Positions 7,289-18,633 of a stretch of 20,000 bases of DNA are shown in pieces. The stretch is from an uncultured virus (IMG/VR IMGVR_UViG_3300024272_005753) (taxonomy: Duplodnaviria; Heunggongvirae; Uroviricota; Caudoviricetes). Under the pieces are notes generated by a model, which saw only the letters and a list, made by a program, of their open reading frames with translations, was not told the DNA's origin and did not search any database. The stretch's first letter is position 1, and each line of letters begins with the position of its first letter. The stretch is from the IMG/VR virus record IMGVR_UViG_3300024272_005753; one strand, given 5' to 3'. The translations under genes and the position numbers were made by a program.

Positions 7289-7771
7289 ATGAAAATTAAG
7301 GATTATAATGCAGCTATCCTGTGTGAAGAATATGAAACGGCTTTATCTGGTAGTGAATGTTTTTTCCCTGGCACTAATTTAACTATGAAAATTCGACTAG
7401 GCCAGGAGCCCGTTGAAGATTATAATAAGCGAAGAGATGCTTGTCTTGAAGCAATGAGAAAGGGCGCTATCATTTTTAAAATTGAAGACCGTAAAGATAT
7501 GTATTTCATTGACCTATATCGAGATGGTAAGGTCGTGAAAACAATCAATGGTCGTGCTTTTAATCAGGGTAGTGCTTCTGATATTAATCGTACTTTCACA
7601 TCTTTCAAATATAACAAGAAGAGTGGTAAATTTTACCTAAAAGCAGAGATGGAATTTCGAAGCTATTATTTGAATGGCGGGGGTTCTTACACTTCTTCTA
7701 AAACTCATTGGTTTGAAGGGGATATTAAGAAAATTCTTCGTTTTGTAAGGGAGGAGAAAGCATATGCGTGA
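7289..7771 (+). CDS. Hypothetical protein
   Basis: 160-aa ORF with RBS AAGGAG, first gene after the promoter; overlaps the next gene by 8 nt. Confidence 0.7.
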   Translation: MKIKDYNAAILCEEYETALSGSECFFPGTNLTMKIRLGQEPVEDYNKRRDACLEAMRKGAIIFKIEDRKDMYFIDLYRDGKVVKTINGRAFNQGSASDINRTFTSFKYNKKSGKFYLKAEMEFRSYYLNGGGSYTSSKTHWFEGDIKKILRFVREEKAYA

Positions 7772-8420
7772 ATTTAAACTTATAAGAGACCCGAATGACT
7801 GTGGGAATCTTTATTATAGAACGAGTGCTACATTTGAGCCTGGAGTAACAGTTCTGGTTGGTTGTAATGGCTGTGGTAAAACATCTCTTATTCAACAGAT
7901 TAAACGACAGCTAGAAAAGGAAGACATTCCTTTTGTTCATTATGATAATCTCCATCATGGTGGTTCTAATGCCCGCCAAAAGGCTGGGTTTTATGGAGAT
8001 GTAGAGTTTATGGCTACATCTATGTGTTCCAGTGAAGGTGAAAATATAGTGCTTAATATGGGGAATGTGGCCCGTGAAATGGGTTCTGTTTCTCGTAAAT
8101 ATCCTGAGGCTAAAGAAATTTGGTTCTTGCTGGATGCTGTGGATAGTGGTCTTTCTATTGATAATATTGTTGATATTAAGGAATACTTGATTAAGACTGT
8201 ATTTGAGCATAATAAAGGCAAAGATATATACTTTATTATTTCTTGTAATGAATACGAAATGGCCCGTGGAGAGAAATGTTTCGATACCTGGCTATGTAAG
8301 TATATAGATATTAAGTCTTATGAAGAATATCGTGAGTTTATTCTTAAGTCGCGTGAGCGTAAAGACAAGCGAGAAGCTACATGGGATAAGATTAGAAGTA
8401 GAGGAAGGAGGAGAGGGTAA
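7764..8420 (+). CDS. Small ABC-type/AAA ATPase-like protein
   Basis: Walker A GCNGCGKT preceded by PGVTVLV; signature-like SSEGE; Walker B/D-loop FLLDAVDSGLS; RBS GGAGG. Confidence 0.75.
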   Translation: MREFKLIRDPNDCGNLYYRTSATFEPGVTVLVGCNGCGKTSLIQQIKRQLEKEDIPFVHYDNLHHGGSNARQKAGFYGDVEFMATSMCSSEGENIVLNMGNVAREMGSVSRKYPEAKEIWFLLDAVDSGLSIDNIVDIKEYLIKTVFEHNKGKDIYFIISCNEYEMARGEKCFDTWLCKYIDIKSYEEYREFILKSRERKDKREATWDKIRSRGRRRG

Positions 8421-9441: not shown

Positions 9442-9852
9442 TTAGGTTAATAGTTCTGTCAAAGCATTATCCCATGTATCGAAGATATCATCGACCCAAG
9501 TGGTTAGATGCCCATCTTCATCAATTTCGGCAATAACGTCGCTGCCATCATTGAGAATATTATGAATCTTAGCACCCTGGAACTTAGCTTTTCTGATTTC
9601 TACACGCATAGCGTTGAATACATGGTCAGAATAGGTGAGAATAAATAGGTCCTTATCCTGTTCAATATGTTCCTTTACTCTCTTACGAATTTCTTCATAT
9701 AGAGTCTTAGGATGTTTTACACAATACTCGGGATAAATAATGAAATTTTCCTGAAGAATACTTCCTACGTAAATTCCATTGTCGTCGCACAACTTTGTGA
9801 AATGGTCATTCAGGCGGATGTTTGGCTGACCCGACATTAGTTCTAGCTTCAT
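9442..9852 (-). CDS. Stand-alone DUF3696-like protein (C-terminal half of AAA_15/AAA_21-type ATPases)
   Basis: IIYPEYCVKHPK (cf. IEEPEAHLHP), FILTYSDHVFNAMR (cf. IETHSDHILNGIR), IDEDGHLTTWVDDIFD (cf. IDENGxLxxWPxGFFD); no Walker A. Confidence 0.6.
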   Translation of the reverse strand: MKLELMSGQPNIRLNDHFTKLCDDNGIYVGSILQENFIIYPEYCVKHPKTLYEEIRKRVKEHIEQDKDLFILTYSDHVFNAMRVEIRKAKFQGAKIHNILNDGSDVIAEIDEDGHLTTWVDDIFDTWDNALTELLT

Positions 9853-10012
9853 ATGCAATCCTATCTCGCTTTCCTAGTATGTATGCTCTGGAGCAGTCCT
9901 TCCAGAATTCGCAATCGTCTGTATCTTTTGGGCAACCTGTACAGACTTCTTCTTTTGAAATATATTCTCCATCAGCTTCAGATAGAGTCTTTTCTATATC
10001 CCATTTACTCAT
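9806..10012 (-). CDS. Small Cys-rich hypothetical protein
   Basis: 68 aa; CTGC...CEFWKDC; overlaps the upstream gene's stop. Confidence 0.55.
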   Translation of the reverse strand: MSKWDIEKTLSEADGEYISKEEVCTGCPKDTDDCEFWKDCSRAYILGKRDRIAYEARTNVGSAKHPPE

Positions 10013-12811: not shown

Positions 12812-13834
12812 ATGAATATCGATGATTATCGATTTATTGGAGAAGACAAATTTAAAATTAAAAAGTTTAAGACAAATGATAAGGGCGAATTCAAGAGTCG
12901 AGAAGATGCCGTTGAAGAATTCGTTTCTAATTTAAACGAAATCAATCGCCTGCAGCAGAAGCTTTATGCTGAACGTAAAGAGGGCGTTGTATTTATCTTT
13001 CAGGCAATGGATGCTGCTGGCAAGGATGGCGTAATTCGTACAGTATTTAGTACTTTAACTCCTCATGGCGTTAAGGAATATTGCTTTAAAGTTCCTTCCG
13101 CAGAAGAGGCTTCTCATGATTACTTGTGGAGATTTTGGCCTGCACTGCCTGCGCGTGGGCATATTTCTATCTTTAATCGCAGTTATTACGAAGATGTATT
13201 AATTGGAAAAGTACATAAGCTCTATGAAAATCAATCTCGTCCTGATAGATTAAAGGATGTTGATGTAATTAAACAGCGTTATAAGGAAATTAAAGATTTT
13301 GAGAAATATCTTTATAATAATGGTACCAGGGTTGTTAAGATTTTCTTAAATGTATCTAAGGATGAACAGGCCAAGAGATTTATTTCTCGAATTGATACTC
13401 CTAAAAAGAATTGGAAGATTTCTGCTGGGGATATTAAGGAAAGAGAATATTGGGATGAATACCAAGATGCCTTTGAGAAGATGATTAATAAGACATCTAC
13501 AGATTATAGTCCTTGGTATGTTGTACCTGCTGACCACAAGTGGTTTGCTCGTCTATTGGTTTCTCGTATTGTTCTTGAAACACTAAAAGAAATGGACCCT
13601 CATTTCCCTCGTATTTCTGCTGAAGAAATGGAAGATATTTATGCTTATCGTAAGAGCTTAGTTGATAGTCTTGAAGACAAGACTGGATATGAAGAAGCTC
13701 CCGATTCTGTTTTTAATAAAACTTGTGAATTGGTAATGGATAACATTGCTGAAGAAGAAATGCAAAAAATCAAAGAAAAAGAATCGGAAAATAAGAAAGA
13801 AAATTCTAAAAACGGTCAGCAACCCCATGCCTGA
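12812..13834 (+). CDS. ppk2: Polyphosphate kinase 2 family protein (class III-like); last 6 codons come from the IscB element
   Basis: Walker A FQAMDAAGKDG, FKVPSAEE, HDYLWR, Walker B IFNRSYYEDV, KNWKISAGD, PWYVVPADHKWFARL. Confidence 0.92.
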   Translation: MNIDDYRFIGEDKFKIKKFKTNDKGEFKSREDAVEEFVSNLNEINRLQQKLYAERKEGVVFIFQAMDAAGKDGVIRTVFSTLTPHGVKEYCFKVPSAEEASHDYLWRFWPALPARGHISIFNRSYYEDVLIGKVHKLYENQSRPDRLKDVDVIKQRYKEIKDFEKYLYNNGTRVVKIFLNVSKDEQAKRFISRIDTPKKNWKISAGDIKEREYWDEYQDAFEKMINKTSTDYSPWYVVPADHKWFARLLVSRIVLETLKEMDPHFPRISAEEMEDIYAYRKSLVDSLEDKTGYEEAPDSVFNKTCELVMDNIAEEEMQKIKEKESENKKENSKNGQQPHA

Positions 13835-14100
13835 AGGCAGGGGCTTGTAAAAGCCCTTTACTGACTAGCCTAAGTTTTAACTAACTACGTTATAGTAGAA
13901 TAGCAGTTTTTTAACAGCTGCCACAATAGTTACCAGTGGGTGTTTGACCTAGCCCACTGCTCTAAGAATAGTCATTAAACAGTTCTGAAGGGTAGGAGCA
14001 GTGTGGCTATTAGAAAACCTACTATAACATTGGCGAAGGTCAACTTACCTCACTTTGGTGAGTGTGGCAGCTGTGTTCTTTGTTTTAGCTGCTATTCTAT
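13815..14100 (+). ncRNA. omegaRNA (HEARO-like) scaffold; 5' guide comes from the upstream ppk2 flank
   Basis: Typical motifs GGGGCTTG...AAGCCC, GACTAGCCTAAG, CTACGTT, CCTAGCC...CTCT, AACATTGGCGAAGG; stem GTTATAGTAG (13889-13898)/CTACTATAAC (14019-14028); directly upstream of iscB. Confidence 0.85.
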
Positions 14101-15605: not shown

Positions 15606-15887
15606 ATGGTTACCAAAGATAGTATAAAGCAATTAGTGGAGTATCATGAAGAATATTTTGAAAAACAAGTTATTGAAGATGTTATGGAAGAGTTTGAGTT
15701 CGATAAGGCTAGATTAGAAGATGAAAATTTAGATAAATTATCGGAAGAAGATTTGTTTAGTACTTATGCTGATATTGTATATTTCCTTGTTAGTGGTCTT
15801 GGTATTGACTTCGAGACGATGTACGATGTTTTGCATGATGTCATGGGATTGGGTCAAAAAGACGTAGAGAATCTACTTGATTGGTAA
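15606..15887 (+). CDS. Small acidic hypothetical protein
   Basis: RBS AAGGAG 8 nt before ATG 15606; putative promoter TTTACT-17-TATTAT at 15546-15574; very D/E-rich. Confidence 0.7.
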   Translation: MVTKDSIKQLVEYHEEYFEKQVIEDVMEEFEFDKARLEDENLDKLSEEDLFSTYADIVYFLVSGLGIDFETMYDVLHDVMGLGQKDVENLLDW

Positions 15888-15890
15888 AAT

Positions 15891-15927
15891 AAAAATACAC
15901 ACAACTTTAAGTTGTGTGTATTTTTTT
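15891..15927. terminator. Bidirectional terminator
   Basis: AAAAATACACACAACT-TTA-AGTTGTGTGTATTTTT between convergent genes. Confidence 0.75.
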
Positions 15928-17004
15928 ATACATACATATTCTAGGTTCGTTATTATCGAAGTCCCAAGTGTGCCATCCATTTCCATCGCATTCTCGAGCA
16001 AATTCACAATTTTTGCACGTAGAACTCTTATTTGCTTTTGGATTTCGGAATATTTCAAATTTATTTTTCCAAACATCATAGAGATTGTCTTTCTTTATAT
16101 TTCCGAATACCAGGTCGGGTCTTCTTTCAATATCTAAACAAGCACTAATATCTCCATTATGTTGTATAGCTGCTACTTTAATTCCTGCTTCACAAGAGAA
16201 AAACCAATCTCTTACTTCGTATTCATATTCAAGCCCTAAAAAATAGTTGCAGCTATAAATAATGGGGAGTTCTTTTGTTGAGTTAGTTTTTATATAATCT
16301 AGGATATATTTGTAATCTTTATCGTCTAGCAAGATGTCTTTATTTGTTAAGGCTTTTCCGATTGGGTCAACATTAATAACTCTCCAAATATCCACATTTA
16401 AACTTTTCACAATTTCTTTTATTTGGTCCAGTTCGTGTAAATTTCTTTTATGAACCACTGTGGTGACCATGATGTTGGCAATATCTACTTCCACAAGGTT
16501 TTTGATGCCTTCAATAGCTGTTTTATAACCAGTATTGGTTTGTCTGAACCAGTTATGGGTTTCTTCTAATCCATCCAAACTTACACTTACAGAATATAAT
16601 CCTGCCGCCTTAAATTCAGCGGCTTTTTCTTTTGTCATAAGTGTAGCGTTTGTAGTCATTCCCCAAATATATCCCATATCATTAATTTTCCTCATAAGCT
16701 CTGGCAAATTCTTTTTAAGAAGAGGTTCTCCACCAGTCACTGTTATGAACGGTAATTTTTTATCTTTTAAATCTTCTTTTAATTGTTTTAAACAATTAAG
16801 TATTTCTTCGTCTGTTAAAGACTCAATAATATCTTTGTTTTTATTGTAATCACAGCTGCTGCCACAATGCAAACAATTTTCATTACATTTTTGAGTTATT
16901 TCGATAAATAATGTATGAAGTTGGGGATGTTCTCTTAAAAATTCTCTATATAAAACTATTTCCTTAAATCTTGCGCATTTAAGTTTATCATAAATATTTG
17001 ACAT
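15907..17004 (-). CDS. Radical SAM/SPASM domain enzyme (TIGR04133-like / splicease-like)
   Basis: CNENCLHCGSSC (CxxxCxxC), TGGEP, TTNA, SVSLDG, SPASM Cys set CEAG...GDISAC...FGNI...CKNCEFARECDGNG...C. Confidence 0.9.
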   Translation of the reverse strand: MSNIYDKLKCARFKEIVLYREFLREHPQLHTLFIEITQKCNENCLHCGSSCDYNKNKDIIESLTDEEILNCLKQLKEDLKDKKLPFITVTGGEPLLKKNLPELMRKINDMGYIWGMTTNATLMTKEKAAEFKAAGLYSVSVSLDGLEETHNWFRQTNTGYKTAIEGIKNLVEVDIANIMVTTVVHKRNLHELDQIKEIVKSLNVDIWRVINVDPIGKALTNKDILLDDKDYKYILDYIKTNSTKELPIIYSCNYFLGLEYEYEVRDWFFSCEAGIKVAAIQHNGDISACLDIERRPDLVFGNIKKDNLYDVWKNKFEIFRNPKANKSSTCKNCEFARECDGNGWHTWDFDNNEPRICMYKKIHTT

Positions 17005-17005
17005 A

Positions 17006-17626
17006 TTATAACACCTTTTTCTTTAAAGTTTCATGGAGGATGAATAAAAAATTAAAATCGGCACCATTTAATATTTCCTCAAAAATTATAACATATGCTT
17101 TGCGTGTATGCTCTTTGTGTTCTTCTAATATACTTGTGACAATTGAAAGTATTGAATCTTTTAATTGTTGTTCATCAACTGACTGTGGGGAGCAGGAAGA
17201 TGGGGAACAAACTTCTTGGTCCTCACATGTTAATTTTACAATATTATATATAAAAGATAACATATCATCTGATACATCGTTTAACTCATTATGTATTATT
17301 GATAAATTTACGTTTATAAATTCATCAATTCCTTGGGCCTTTTCTTTTATATATCTTATTTTTTTAATTTTTTCGTTTGTTTTGAAAATATATTTTAATG
17401 CGTCAACTTCTATTGGAGACAAACAATAGACATGGAAATAAAAAAGTTTTGCGAATTGTGGGGGAACAAAAGATGTTACATATTTAGCTGCTTCTTTTTT
17501 CTTTTCAAGAGTTTCTGAGTTTACTTCTTTTGTATTTTTTTCGAATGGGGTATATACTCCATATACTAAAGTTGAATCATTTTTGTCATCATCAAAATCA
17601 TTTGTTAAATTCTCTTTATCAATCAT
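17006..17626 (-). CDS. Hypothetical protein, paralog of 17642..18259, N-terminal VYGV motif (candidate radical SAM substrate)
   Basis: RBS AAGGAGG; stop is 1 nt before the rSAM ATG; aligns by eye with the neighbouring ORF. Confidence 0.7.
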   Translation of the reverse strand: MIDKENLTNDFDDDKNDSTLVYGVYTPFEKNTKEVNSETLEKKKEAAKYVTSFVPPQFAKLFYFHVYCLSPIEVDALKYIFKTNEKIKKIRYIKEKAQGIDEFINVNLSIIHNELNDVSDDMLSFIYNIVKLTCEDQEVCSPSSCSPQSVDEQQLKDSILSIVTSILEEHKEHTRKAYVIIFEEILNGADFNFLFILHETLKKKVL

Positions 17627-17641
17627 AAAAATTCCTCCTTA

Positions 17642-18259
17642 TTAATATTCTTTGGTTAAAATCTCTGATAAACAAAAAAGTATTTCTGGGTTCAGCTTAT
17701 CTAAAATCTCAATTGTCAGGTTTGCCATTTTTTCTTTGTTTTTATGATTTGAGTTTAAAATAATATTTGTTGCTGCATGTAGAGAATTTTCTTTTACTTG
17801 CATCTTGTTTATATTCTGGGGGATTTCTCGCAAATTGTCATTGTCTTCTTCGTTATTAGCGGTTTTTAGAATAAGATAAATGAGATTTAAAGTATTTTCC
17901 GATAAGCCATTTATTTCTTGGTGTGCTTCAGATATATCAATATTAGTTAGTTTATCAATATTTTTTGTATTCTTAAAAATATATTCTTTTTTCTTGGTTT
18001 TGTCATTTTCTTTGAGAAGAAAGCTTAAAGCAATATGAGATTCTGTTGATAATTGCCTTATATACGAGTTAAGTTTTTTTTGATAAATGATTGGGAAATA
18101 AGAGATTATAGTTTCAGAACTTTTAAATTTATCAAATGTTGAAAAACCATTCTTTTCGAAAGTTTCATTTTCATAAAACGTTTTTACAAAGTCTTTGTCA
18201 GGTGGGGCTACGCCATATACTGCAACTGGCAAATTTCTTTTTTTAAATATATTTTTCAT
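17642..18259 (-). CDS. Hypothetical protein, paralog of 17006..17626, N-terminal VYGV motif (candidate radical SAM substrate)
   Basis: RBS AAGGAGG; VAVYGVAPP; shared core LS...AL..L.K.N.K.KK..YI...ID...N..LS..H.E.N..S...L..IY.I.K. Confidence 0.7.
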   Translation of the reverse strand: MKNIFKKRNLPVAVYGVAPPDKDFVKTFYENETFEKNGFSTFDKFKSSETIISYFPIIYQKKLNSYIRQLSTESHIALSFLLKENDKTKKKEYIFKNTKNIDKLTNIDISEAHQEINGLSENTLNLIYLILKTANNEEDNDNLREIPQNINKMQVKENSLHAATNIILNSNHKNKEKMANLTIEILDKLNPEILFCLSEILTKEY

Positions 18260-18286
18260 TGAGGTGCCTCCTTTATGTATCTTGTT

Positions 18287-18472
18287 TTAATATAAAACGT
18301 CTTTTCGAACATAAGGTGACGATGTTTCTCGGCCAGCTTTTCCGTTTTCGTTGATAAAATATTTATTACATCTATCACAACGTAGTGTTCTTCCGCTAGG
18401 CATCATAAAATAAAGCATCCCATTACAAATAGGACAAGTTGGCGGAGCTTTTCTTTTTGTTTTTTCGGTCAT
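18287..18472 (-). CDS. Small zinc-ribbon protein
   Basis: CPICNG...CDRCNK; RBS AAGGAGG. Confidence 0.7.
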   Translation of the reverse strand: MTEKTKRKAPPTCPICNGMLYFMMPSGRTLRCDRCNKYFINENGKAGRETSSPYVRKDVLY

Positions 18473-18633
18473 ATATTATACCCTCCTTTTAAATTTTTCC
18501 TTAATCTTATTTTATGTTTTTTCAGTATACTCTAAATATAGAAAACGTGTTATATAACACTGTTTTCAGAACTAAAATATAATAGTTTCCAAAACAATAA
18601 CAAGAATACATATTGGAAAAGGGGATAACAATT

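Follow-up and report, generated by a model that had tools for sequence, protein, structure and literature searches.

A TIGR04133-like radical SAM/SPASM enzyme encoded beside two soluble helical paralogs that share an N-terminal V-Y-G tag

What does a radical S-adenosylmethionine (rSAM)/SPASM enzyme act on when it is encoded directly behind two paralogous soluble proteins of about 205 residues? This question is raised by a minus-strand operon in the IMG/VR record IMGVR_UViG_3300024272_005753, which was analysed as a single stretch of 20,000 nucleotides (the window). The operon comprises four head-to-tail open reading frames (ORFs), namely a 61-residue ORF, paralog B, paralog A and the rSAM/SPASM enzyme, separated in that order by 27, 15 and 1 nt. 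An earlier note on this DNA had proposed that the last three genes form a backbone-editing system, in which a splicease-like enzyme acts on a V-Y-G motif found in both paralogs. Our comparative sequence analysis indicates that this V-Y-G tag is quite probably the target of the enzyme. By analogy, tyramine splicing is the likeliest chemistry for the reaction, to which we would give slightly less than an even chance.

The two paralogs are 30% identical across 199 residues (BLASTP, E 3e-20), which bears out their description as diverged paralogs. Both motifs picked out by the earlier note are present, TLVYGVYTP at residues 19-27 of paralog A and VAVYGVAPP at residues 12-20 of paralog B, and the two N-termini differ in charge as described, that of A being acidic and that of B basic. 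We searched for relatives of these proteins. When 1.84 billion representative sequences were searched exhaustively with a HMMER profile, a family of four clusters emerged (P0002, P0003, P0004 and P0005). P0003 is paralog A itself (identical), P0004 matches at E 3.5e-23 and P0005 at E 6e-12. A word-based search of 5.8 billion proteins returned two close relatives of paralog B, with 91% and 80% identity. In 401 Lachnospiraceae genomes, searched in six frames, there was no homologue beyond one marginal match (E 9.6e-4) that contains an internal stop codon, and a scan of the genome contigs with paralog B as query gave no match. One match to the P0005 query in these contigs (L027) was rejected as spurious, as it covers 30 residues in a non-coding frame. 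Neither paralog matches a model in Pfam or NCBIfam (E <= 0.01), PHROGs or PADLOC.

Seven sequences of the family were aligned, with 23-30% identity. The alignment contains 13 invariant columns, including V14, Y15, G16 and P20 (paralog B numbering). VYG is the sole strictly conserved N-terminal element, the rest of the first 40 residues being unconserved. Each of the eight YG instances found in six sequences of the family has a Val at -1 and a Pro at +5 from the Tyr, and the conservation of YG among homologues, which the earlier note had set as a check, is observed in all of them. P0004 and P0005 each harbor a second V-Y-G a few residues after the first. Glycine is scarce in these proteins, with just 2 to 4 residues in each, and a VYG arises by chance within the first 45 residues in 0.06-0.4% of 200,000 composition shuffles per protein. 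The shared motif thus exceeds chance expectation.

No 19-residue segment of the paralogs exceeds a mean Kyte-Doolittle hydropathy of 1.51, and no Cys is present in residues 1-40 of A or B. The paralogs are thus devoid of a signal peptide, a lipobox or a membrane segment, in agreement with the earlier description of both as signal-less. The AlphaFold2 model of paralog B, built from the seven-row alignment, has a mean predicted local distance difference test (pLDDT) score of 72.9 and a predicted template modelling (pTM) score of 0.66. Residues 1-39, motif included, have a pLDDT below 50. Residues 41-205 are predicted to form an all-helical domain, with block means mostly between 76 and 91, and nine helices are placed between residues 23 and 202. 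The model thus favors the earlier claim that the paralogs contain a folded domain, and it would leave the VYG motif on a flexible tail, accessible to the enzyme. The helical domain has no match at E <= 0.001 in the PDB (Foldseek) or in BFVD. The highest Z in a wide VIA-align search was 5.8 (71 residues), which for helical proteins is noise level, and the ESM Atlas gave no usable match, the Atlas's own model having a pLDDT of 0.50. Designed helical proteins, the sole matches of a profile search against PDB sequences, were put down to composition and set aside as relatives.

The enzyme comprises a Radical_SAM domain (PF04055, residues 34-196, 80.1 bits) and a SPASM domain (PF13186, residues 271-334, 40.1 bits). 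It carries both features by which the radical SAM/SPASM superfamily is recognized, the CX3CX2C motif, which reads CNENCLHC (C40/C44/C47), and a Cys-rich C-terminal SPASM domain. The three cysteines of the motif and seven more are invariant in 12 relatives. Only 33 residues lie ahead of the rSAM core, and there is therefore no fused recognition element (RRE) of the type found in systems for peptides that are made by the ribosome and modified after translation (RiPPs). No RRE- or PqqD-like match was obtained for any operon protein in Pfam or NCBIfam, and the ORFs between 12.8 and 20 kb contain no peptidase or transporter domain. The flanking ORFs thus agree with the claim that a separate RRE, protease and exporter are absent.

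Among NCBIfam models, the enzyme scores highest with TIGR04133 (rSAM_w_lipo), at 289.1 bits (E 3.9e-86), aligned over profile positions 14-349 of 350. This does not reach the curated cut-off of 425 bits; for comparison, the enzyme at locus L022 scores 543.9. The window enzyme therefore belongs to a sister clade of TIGR04133 rather than to the family itself, and the resemblance that had been noticed by eye stands as regards the best family but not as regards membership. The next models are AhbD (135 bits), TIGR04053 (126.9), NirJ2 (124.3), TIGR04103 (116.7) and TIGR03913 (79.3). A generic pVip match of 75 bits, the only match of the operon to a defence model, is outweighed by the 289 bits of TIGR04133, and a viperin identity was rejected. 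The clade of the enzyme includes 2343 proteins at E <= 1e-30, the closest being 62%, 60% and 58% identical. Its named members come from Agathobacter, Roseburia, and metagenome-assembled genomes (MAGs) of Lachnospiraceae and Oscillospiraceae.

We then examined which proteins are encoded beside related enzymes. Twelve loci on genome contigs encode enzymes 41-55% identical to that of the window, and 11 of them have a YG lipoprotein gene directly upstream on the same strand. These lipoproteins comprise 86-127 residues, with 2-4 YG motifs each; locus L017 is without a partner. Distant or partial rSAM matches (L018-L021 and L026), found with Cys-rich small peptides or no context, were excluded from the partner counts. 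In the set of 401 Lachnospiraceae genomes the enzyme is present in 23, a set that overlaps the twelve loci in part, and a YG-P protein adjoins it in 18. The partner is a lipoprotein or lipoprotein-like protein with 1-7 motifs in 13 of these 18 genomes, a 241-residue membrane protein with five motifs in one (L037), a signal-less double zinc-ribbon protein with a single central [CT]IYGPxP in three (L042, L044 and L048) and a 179-residue protein with four KYGYP motifs, beside a long-branch enzyme of 484 residues, in one (L051). A logo was drawn from the 56 YG instances of 22 partners, and its consensus is [E/x][C/D/E/T]-V-Y-G-P-P-[E/P]-x-F, V occupying -1 in 45 and a Pro directly following the Gly in 48. 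Of the five partnerless genomes, one has a split enzyme gene (L049/L052), in another the gene is partial, at the end of a contig (L050), and in a third the match is truncated at its 5' end (L047); the remaining two are L036 and L045.

Several of these partners have features of their own. The double zinc-ribbon proteins (L042:2573-2875(-), L044:2579-2968(+) and L048:943-1311(+)) comprise 100-129 residues and match Pfam Zn_Ribbon_1/DZR; at L044 the partner gene lies downstream of the enzyme. The KYGYP protein (L051, G082:C37, reverse-complement 916-1455) is signal-less and is encoded 24 nt upstream of the 484-residue rSAM enzyme; by eye only, its N-terminal half resembles chagasin-type peptidase inhibitors. 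The membrane protein (L037, G307:C9, reverse-complement 743-1468) has hydrophobic N-terminal segments and five motifs of the [VL]YGPPEWF type, and is membrane-anchored rather than a lipoprotein.

The pair formed by TIGR04133 and TIGR04134, both of which are hypothetical equivalogs in NCBIfam found mainly in Bacteroidota, shows the same arrangement. The pair was identified at L022, L023 and L025 (543.9 and 92.9 bits), where the lipoprotein carries VEYGSP just past its lipobox, and a YG motif is present in the partners of L022 and L024. Among 300 Bacteroidota genomes, TIGR04134 scores above its cut-off in three, and [L/K/M]YG[T/V]P follows the lipobox in seven of the eight matches. The earlier note had stated that TIGR04133 enzymes have YG-bearing partners, and both the bona fide pair and the Bacteroidota matches bear this out. 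The TIGR04134 lipoprotein at L055 (G478:C7, 87.9 bits), in a genome with six matches in all, has no YG and reads MYACPYA instead; this is a Y-A form of the tag or else a copy in decay. The proteins encoded next to members of this enzyme family, unrelated in other respects, thus have one feature in common, V/x-Y-G(-x)-P. The tag recurs on at least four unrelated scaffolds in two phyla, which is hard to explain unless the enzyme sees the motif.

A quick IQ-TREE tree of 38 enzymes places the window enzyme with P0008 (SH-like approximate likelihood ratio test, SH-aLRT, 99), then with P0009, P0010 and P0012 (93), within a clade of 14 rows (99). All seven rows of this clade with a readable neighbourhood have lipoprotein partners. 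The zinc-ribbon-partnered enzymes are basal, and those partnered with TIGR04134 lie further out. The simplest reading of these sequences is that a lipoprotein-serving enzyme lineage acquired a new soluble substrate with the same V-Y-G core. The whole sub-clade of P0008-P0012 may use proteins of 205 residues.

The window enzyme thus nests inside an uncatalogued clade from Lachnospiraceae and Oscillospiraceae (41-62% identity) that serves VYGPP lipoproteins, and both share a V-Y-G partner gene directly upstream on the same strand. The partners themselves differ. Those of the clade are acidic lipoproteins of 77-174 residues with 1-7 copies of VYGPP[E/P]xF, whereas in the window there are two soluble helical proteins, each of which has one VYGxxxP. 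The TIGR04133/TIGR04134 pair also shares with the window an upstream partner with an N-terminal xYG-x-P tag, but the window partners have no NCBIfam match, no lipobox and no β-rich CarboxypepD_reg-like domain. With x-Y-G taken as an operational criterion, which is not part of the curated definition, both paralogs carry it, VYG occupying residues 14-16 of B and 21-23 of A. The zinc-ribbon pairs resemble the window in that their partner is signal-less, presumably cytoplasmic, folded and provided with a single tag. They differ in the DZR/Zn_Ribbon_1 scaffold, in the position of [CT]IYGPxP between the ribbons, and in their enzymes, which are basal and apart from that of the window. Action on proteins other than lipoproteins, as the earlier note had supposed, is thus consistent with the signal-less partners, but is not unique to this locus, as zinc-ribbon partners occur in 3 of the 23 Lachnospiraceae genomes. 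What is new relative to the NCBIfam catalogue is the combination of the same enzyme lineage and tag with a very rare soluble scaffold and a shifted proline spacing.

Spliceotide systems provide the closest chemical comparison. They include PlpX/PlpY/PlpA and PcpXYA (type I), and RhaX/RhaA, RcsX and RasX (type II). As in the window, an rSAM/SPASM enzyme is encoded beside X-Y-G proteins, and the paralog family keeps VYG without exception. The window differs in that a Y protein, a Nif11/NHLP leader, a protease and an exporter are not identifiable in it, and in that its tag lies ahead of a folded domain, whereas the spliceotide core comes after the leader. Nor does the locus look like a classical RiPP cluster, as its partners have 205-206 residues and a predicted folded domain, and as the ORFs of the 12.8-20 kb stretch lack peptidase and transporter domains. 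Spliceases belong to the rSAM/SPASM enzymes and have X-Y-G as their site of action (PMC9811515, PMC11626197), and short tags grafted into folded proteins can serve them as substrates even when no leader is present (PMC11414181). In known spliceases the substrate segment is reported to dock beside SAM (PMC11414181). The tags listed for PlpXY with an engineered GYG in Table 1 of PMC10533398 include ...GYGVVFPG and ...GYGLPI, and the first of these has a Y-G-V-x-x-P spacing equal to that of the window motifs.

These observations suggest the following mechanism. The four genes would form one operon of an uncultured gut Bacillota bacterium. The enzyme is expected to bind a SAM-cleaving [4Fe-4S] cluster through CX3CX2C, and its SPASM domain to hold auxiliary clusters. 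Judging from comparative genomics, it would recognize V-Y-G-x-x-x-P on the flexible N-terminal tails of both soluble helical paralogs and, by analogy, would then alter the tyrosine of the tag. The ancestral clade presumably acts on exported lipoproteins with repeated VYGPP tags. As the tag is here on a soluble scaffold without an export signal, the product would remain cytoplasmic unless otherwise released.

Several points weigh against this explanation, and above all against splicing as its chemistry. With TIGR04103, the PlpX/splicease model, the enzyme scores 116.7 bits against a cut-off of 725 and the model ranks fifth, behind AhbD, TIGR04053 and NirJ2. The ranking therefore singles out no splicease identity, and the earlier assignment of the enzyme as splicease-like was an overreach. 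In the control genomes TIGR04103 scored above its cut-off in none. Full-text searches of the literature revealed no function for the TIGR04133/TIGR04134 family, and neither a demonstrated reaction nor a description of the TIGR04133-like clade. According to PMC11414181, binary spliceases such as RhaX employ a leader helix and ternary ones require a Y protein; neither is identifiable here. The proline spacing of the paralogs, VYGxxxP, differs from the VYGPP of the lipoprotein partners. The available parts of the splicease literature name Met, Leu and, as a prediction, Asp as native X residues and mention others in general terms; Val is not named there. P0004 and P0005 are encoded on contigs of just 909 and 1322 nt, too short for co-occurrence with an rSAM gene to be seen. 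Finally, in 2022 Scott et al. (Chem 8:2659) reportedly screened the neighbours of rSAM/SPASM enzymes for YG and, according to reviews, validated 27 pairs of 939 predicted systems. That survey may already include the TIGR04133-like clade. Taken as a whole, enzymatic modification of the tag by tyramine splicing is our best explanation of the locus, and a tentative one that falls a little short of evenly balanced.

If the VYG tag is the target, it might undergo another tyrosine radical chemistry without loss of tyramine, either a C-C or C-O crosslink (cyclophane) or a reaction like those of MftC or PqqE. Three-residue cyclophane-forming rSAM/SPASM enzymes crosslink the ring or the β-carbon of a Tyr to a nearby residue, and a Pro at a fixed distance past YG would also suit a short macrocycle. 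Moreover, the models of two Tyr-modifying SPASM enzymes, MftC (TIGR03962, 101.3 bits) and PqqE (TIGR02109, 96.1 bits), score near TIGR04103. The position of the Pro, on the other hand, moves among partner classes (+2/+3, +3 and +5) while V/x-Y-G is constant, which therefore speaks against a crosslink in a ring of fixed size. MftC targets a C-terminal Val-Tyr, unlike the internal motif of the paralogs. The invariant Gly directly after the Tyr is the hallmark of splice sites (PMC9811515, PMC11626197). Overall, these other chemistries appear rather unlikely, although they have to be taken seriously.

A bolder form of the splicing hypothesis would see V-Y-G(-x)-P as a naturally portable splice tag, by which the rSAM lineage was retargeted from exported lipoproteins to at least three other scaffolds, in the window to cytoplasmic helical proteins. 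If tyramine is excised, an electrophilic ketoamide on the flexible N-terminal arm would turn the products, encoded on a low-G+C island adjacent to IscB, into protein-sized covalent protease inhibitors within the cell, for example against phage or host proteases. We consider this improbable, and the protease-inhibitor role of the products, which the earlier note had put forward, is a conjecture.

Slightly less probable again is that the paralogs are not substrates at all. VYGxxxP would then dock something else, the rSAM enzyme would have a small molecule or a distant protein as its substrate, and adjacency would reflect co-transfer on an island. The paralogs are without a known fold or family, the top models of the enzyme outside TIGR04133 are haem-pathway rSAM enzymes (AhbD and NirJ2), and 5 of the 23 Lachnospiraceae genomes with the enzyme show no adjoining YG partner, all of which would fit. 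Against it, the same motif stands beside the enzyme family on the unrelated scaffolds described above, no tetrapyrrole genes lie nearby, and of the five partnerless genomes one has a split enzyme gene and two have a cut or partial one.

That the locus is a decaying remnant, an rSAM gene without its lipoprotein partner beside unrelated genes whose VYG is ancestral and now functionless, would agree with the extreme rarity of the paralog family, a G+C content below that of the flanks and an adjoining IscB element, but is very improbable. Every gene is intact, and strains about 92-97% identical keep the genes in colinear order; the motif is invariant while the other N-terminal 40 residues diverge, and P0004 and P0005 contain it twice, a duplication that points to selection on the motif itself.

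If the VYG tag is indeed modified in the window, a backbone-editing rSAM lineage would not be limited to peptides or exported lipoproteins, and could be redirected by moving a tag of about seven residues. The locus would then be a natural counterpart to the engineered splice tags developed for protein labelling (PMC10533398, PMC11414181), and a compact two-component means of installing ketoamides at protein N-termini without a Y protein or leader. The reaction, once assigned here, would extend to the whole TIGR04133-like family of 2343 proteins.

The features of the locus are collected in Table 1. The coordinates, the gaps of 15 and 1 nt and the minus-strand coupling given for the three larger genes proved exact, while the 61-residue ORF and the terminator had been overlooked. 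AAGGAGG ribosome-binding sites precede the 61-residue ORF and both paralogs. The 61-residue ORF is probably the first gene of the operon. Its Pfam zinc-ribbon matches are weak only (E 0.01-0.1), it contains no YG motif, and profile comparison shows no similarity to the paralogs. Promoter-like hexamers are found upstream of it, with no enrichment (20 found, 20.6 expected in shuffles). A terminator is present after the rSAM gene alone. Its hairpin has a folding energy of -18.5 kcal/mol (z -7.0), and none of 200 shuffles was as stable; a consensus terminator scan did not list it.

Table 1. Features of the operon and of the adjoining IscB unit, in window coordinates.
Feature	Position	Strand	Basis or remarks
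61-residue zinc-ribbon-like ORF (CPIC...CDRC; CxxC...CxxC)	18287..18472	-	AAGGAGG; 27 nt upstream of paralog B
Paralog B, 205 residues	17642..18259	-	Basic N-terminal tail predicted to be disordered, then all-helical domain (predicted)
V-Y-G-V-A-P-P motif, paralog B residues 14-20	18200..18220	-	Proposed modification site
Paralog A, 206 residues	17006..17626	-	Acidic N-terminal tail, then domain homologous to that of paralog B
V-Y-G-V-Y-T-P motif, paralog A residues 21-27	17546..17566	-	Aligned with the B motif; proposed modification site
Radical SAM/SPASM enzyme, 365 residues, TIGR04133-like	15907..17004	-	Pfam domains, TIGR04133 score, cysteines, tree
Intrinsic terminator hairpin over the rSAM stop codon, then U-run	15884..15925	-	RNA fold
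IscB gene, 413 residues	14135..15376	+	NF040563, 374 bits; RRXRR and HNH
HEARO/omega RNA	13815..14048	+	Rfam RF02033, 148 bits, full length

The operon stretch was found on contigs from animal gut and faecal metagenomes of several studies. It is listed for 20 runs, none of which is an RNA run, which says nothing either way on expression. Identical copies of the operon proteins occur on 14-16 contigs, the longest of 207,962 nt. A contig of 3845 nt from a diverged strain has the rSAM gene, A and B in colinear order, with 128 differences in 1661 nt and 35 in 1042 nt, and the operon genes are intact and colinear across strains about 92-97% identical. In contigs of two runs (X8 and X10), additional letters stand exactly at codons L20-Y22 of paralog A (window positions 17559-17567). 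We read this joint as an in-frame insertion of 42 nt, with the VYG-P motif following it. Within the motif of paralog B, the only listed strain difference is a synonymous change at position 18200, in the third base of codon P20. The N-terminal tail thus differs between strains and the tag is constant.

The record comes from a virus collection, and the earlier note had considered a phage or plasmid probable. Phage and plasmid collections were searched by megablast, with the operon and with the entire window as queries, and by tblastn with paralog B, and none of these searches gave a match; scans of IMG/VR with the paralog-family alignment and with the rSAM enzyme confirmed no relative. PHROGs revealed no phage structural gene in the window, with generic rSAM matches for the enzyme. 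A phage or plasmid origin is thus unsupported, and the locus is read most economically as an island in the genome of a gut bacterium of the Bacillota. The G+C content of the operon (0.27-0.31 at 16000-18500, compared with 0.33-0.39 at 11.5-14.5 kb) is consistent with a foreign origin.

A complete IscB unit, consisting of the HEARO/omega RNA and the IscB gene, is found 0.5 kb away from the operon's end, in convergent orientation to the operon. The nearby PPK2 gene has named relatives in Firmicutes and Eubacteriales MAGs (67-69% identity), and the other neighbours include DUF4349, GNAT and HAD genes. Further away, the short ORFs at 7764-8420(+) and 9442-9858(-) match only the N-terminal P-loop part of AriA/PtuA/GajA models and the C-terminal DUF3696/NsnB part, and look like fragments of broken defence ATPase genes.

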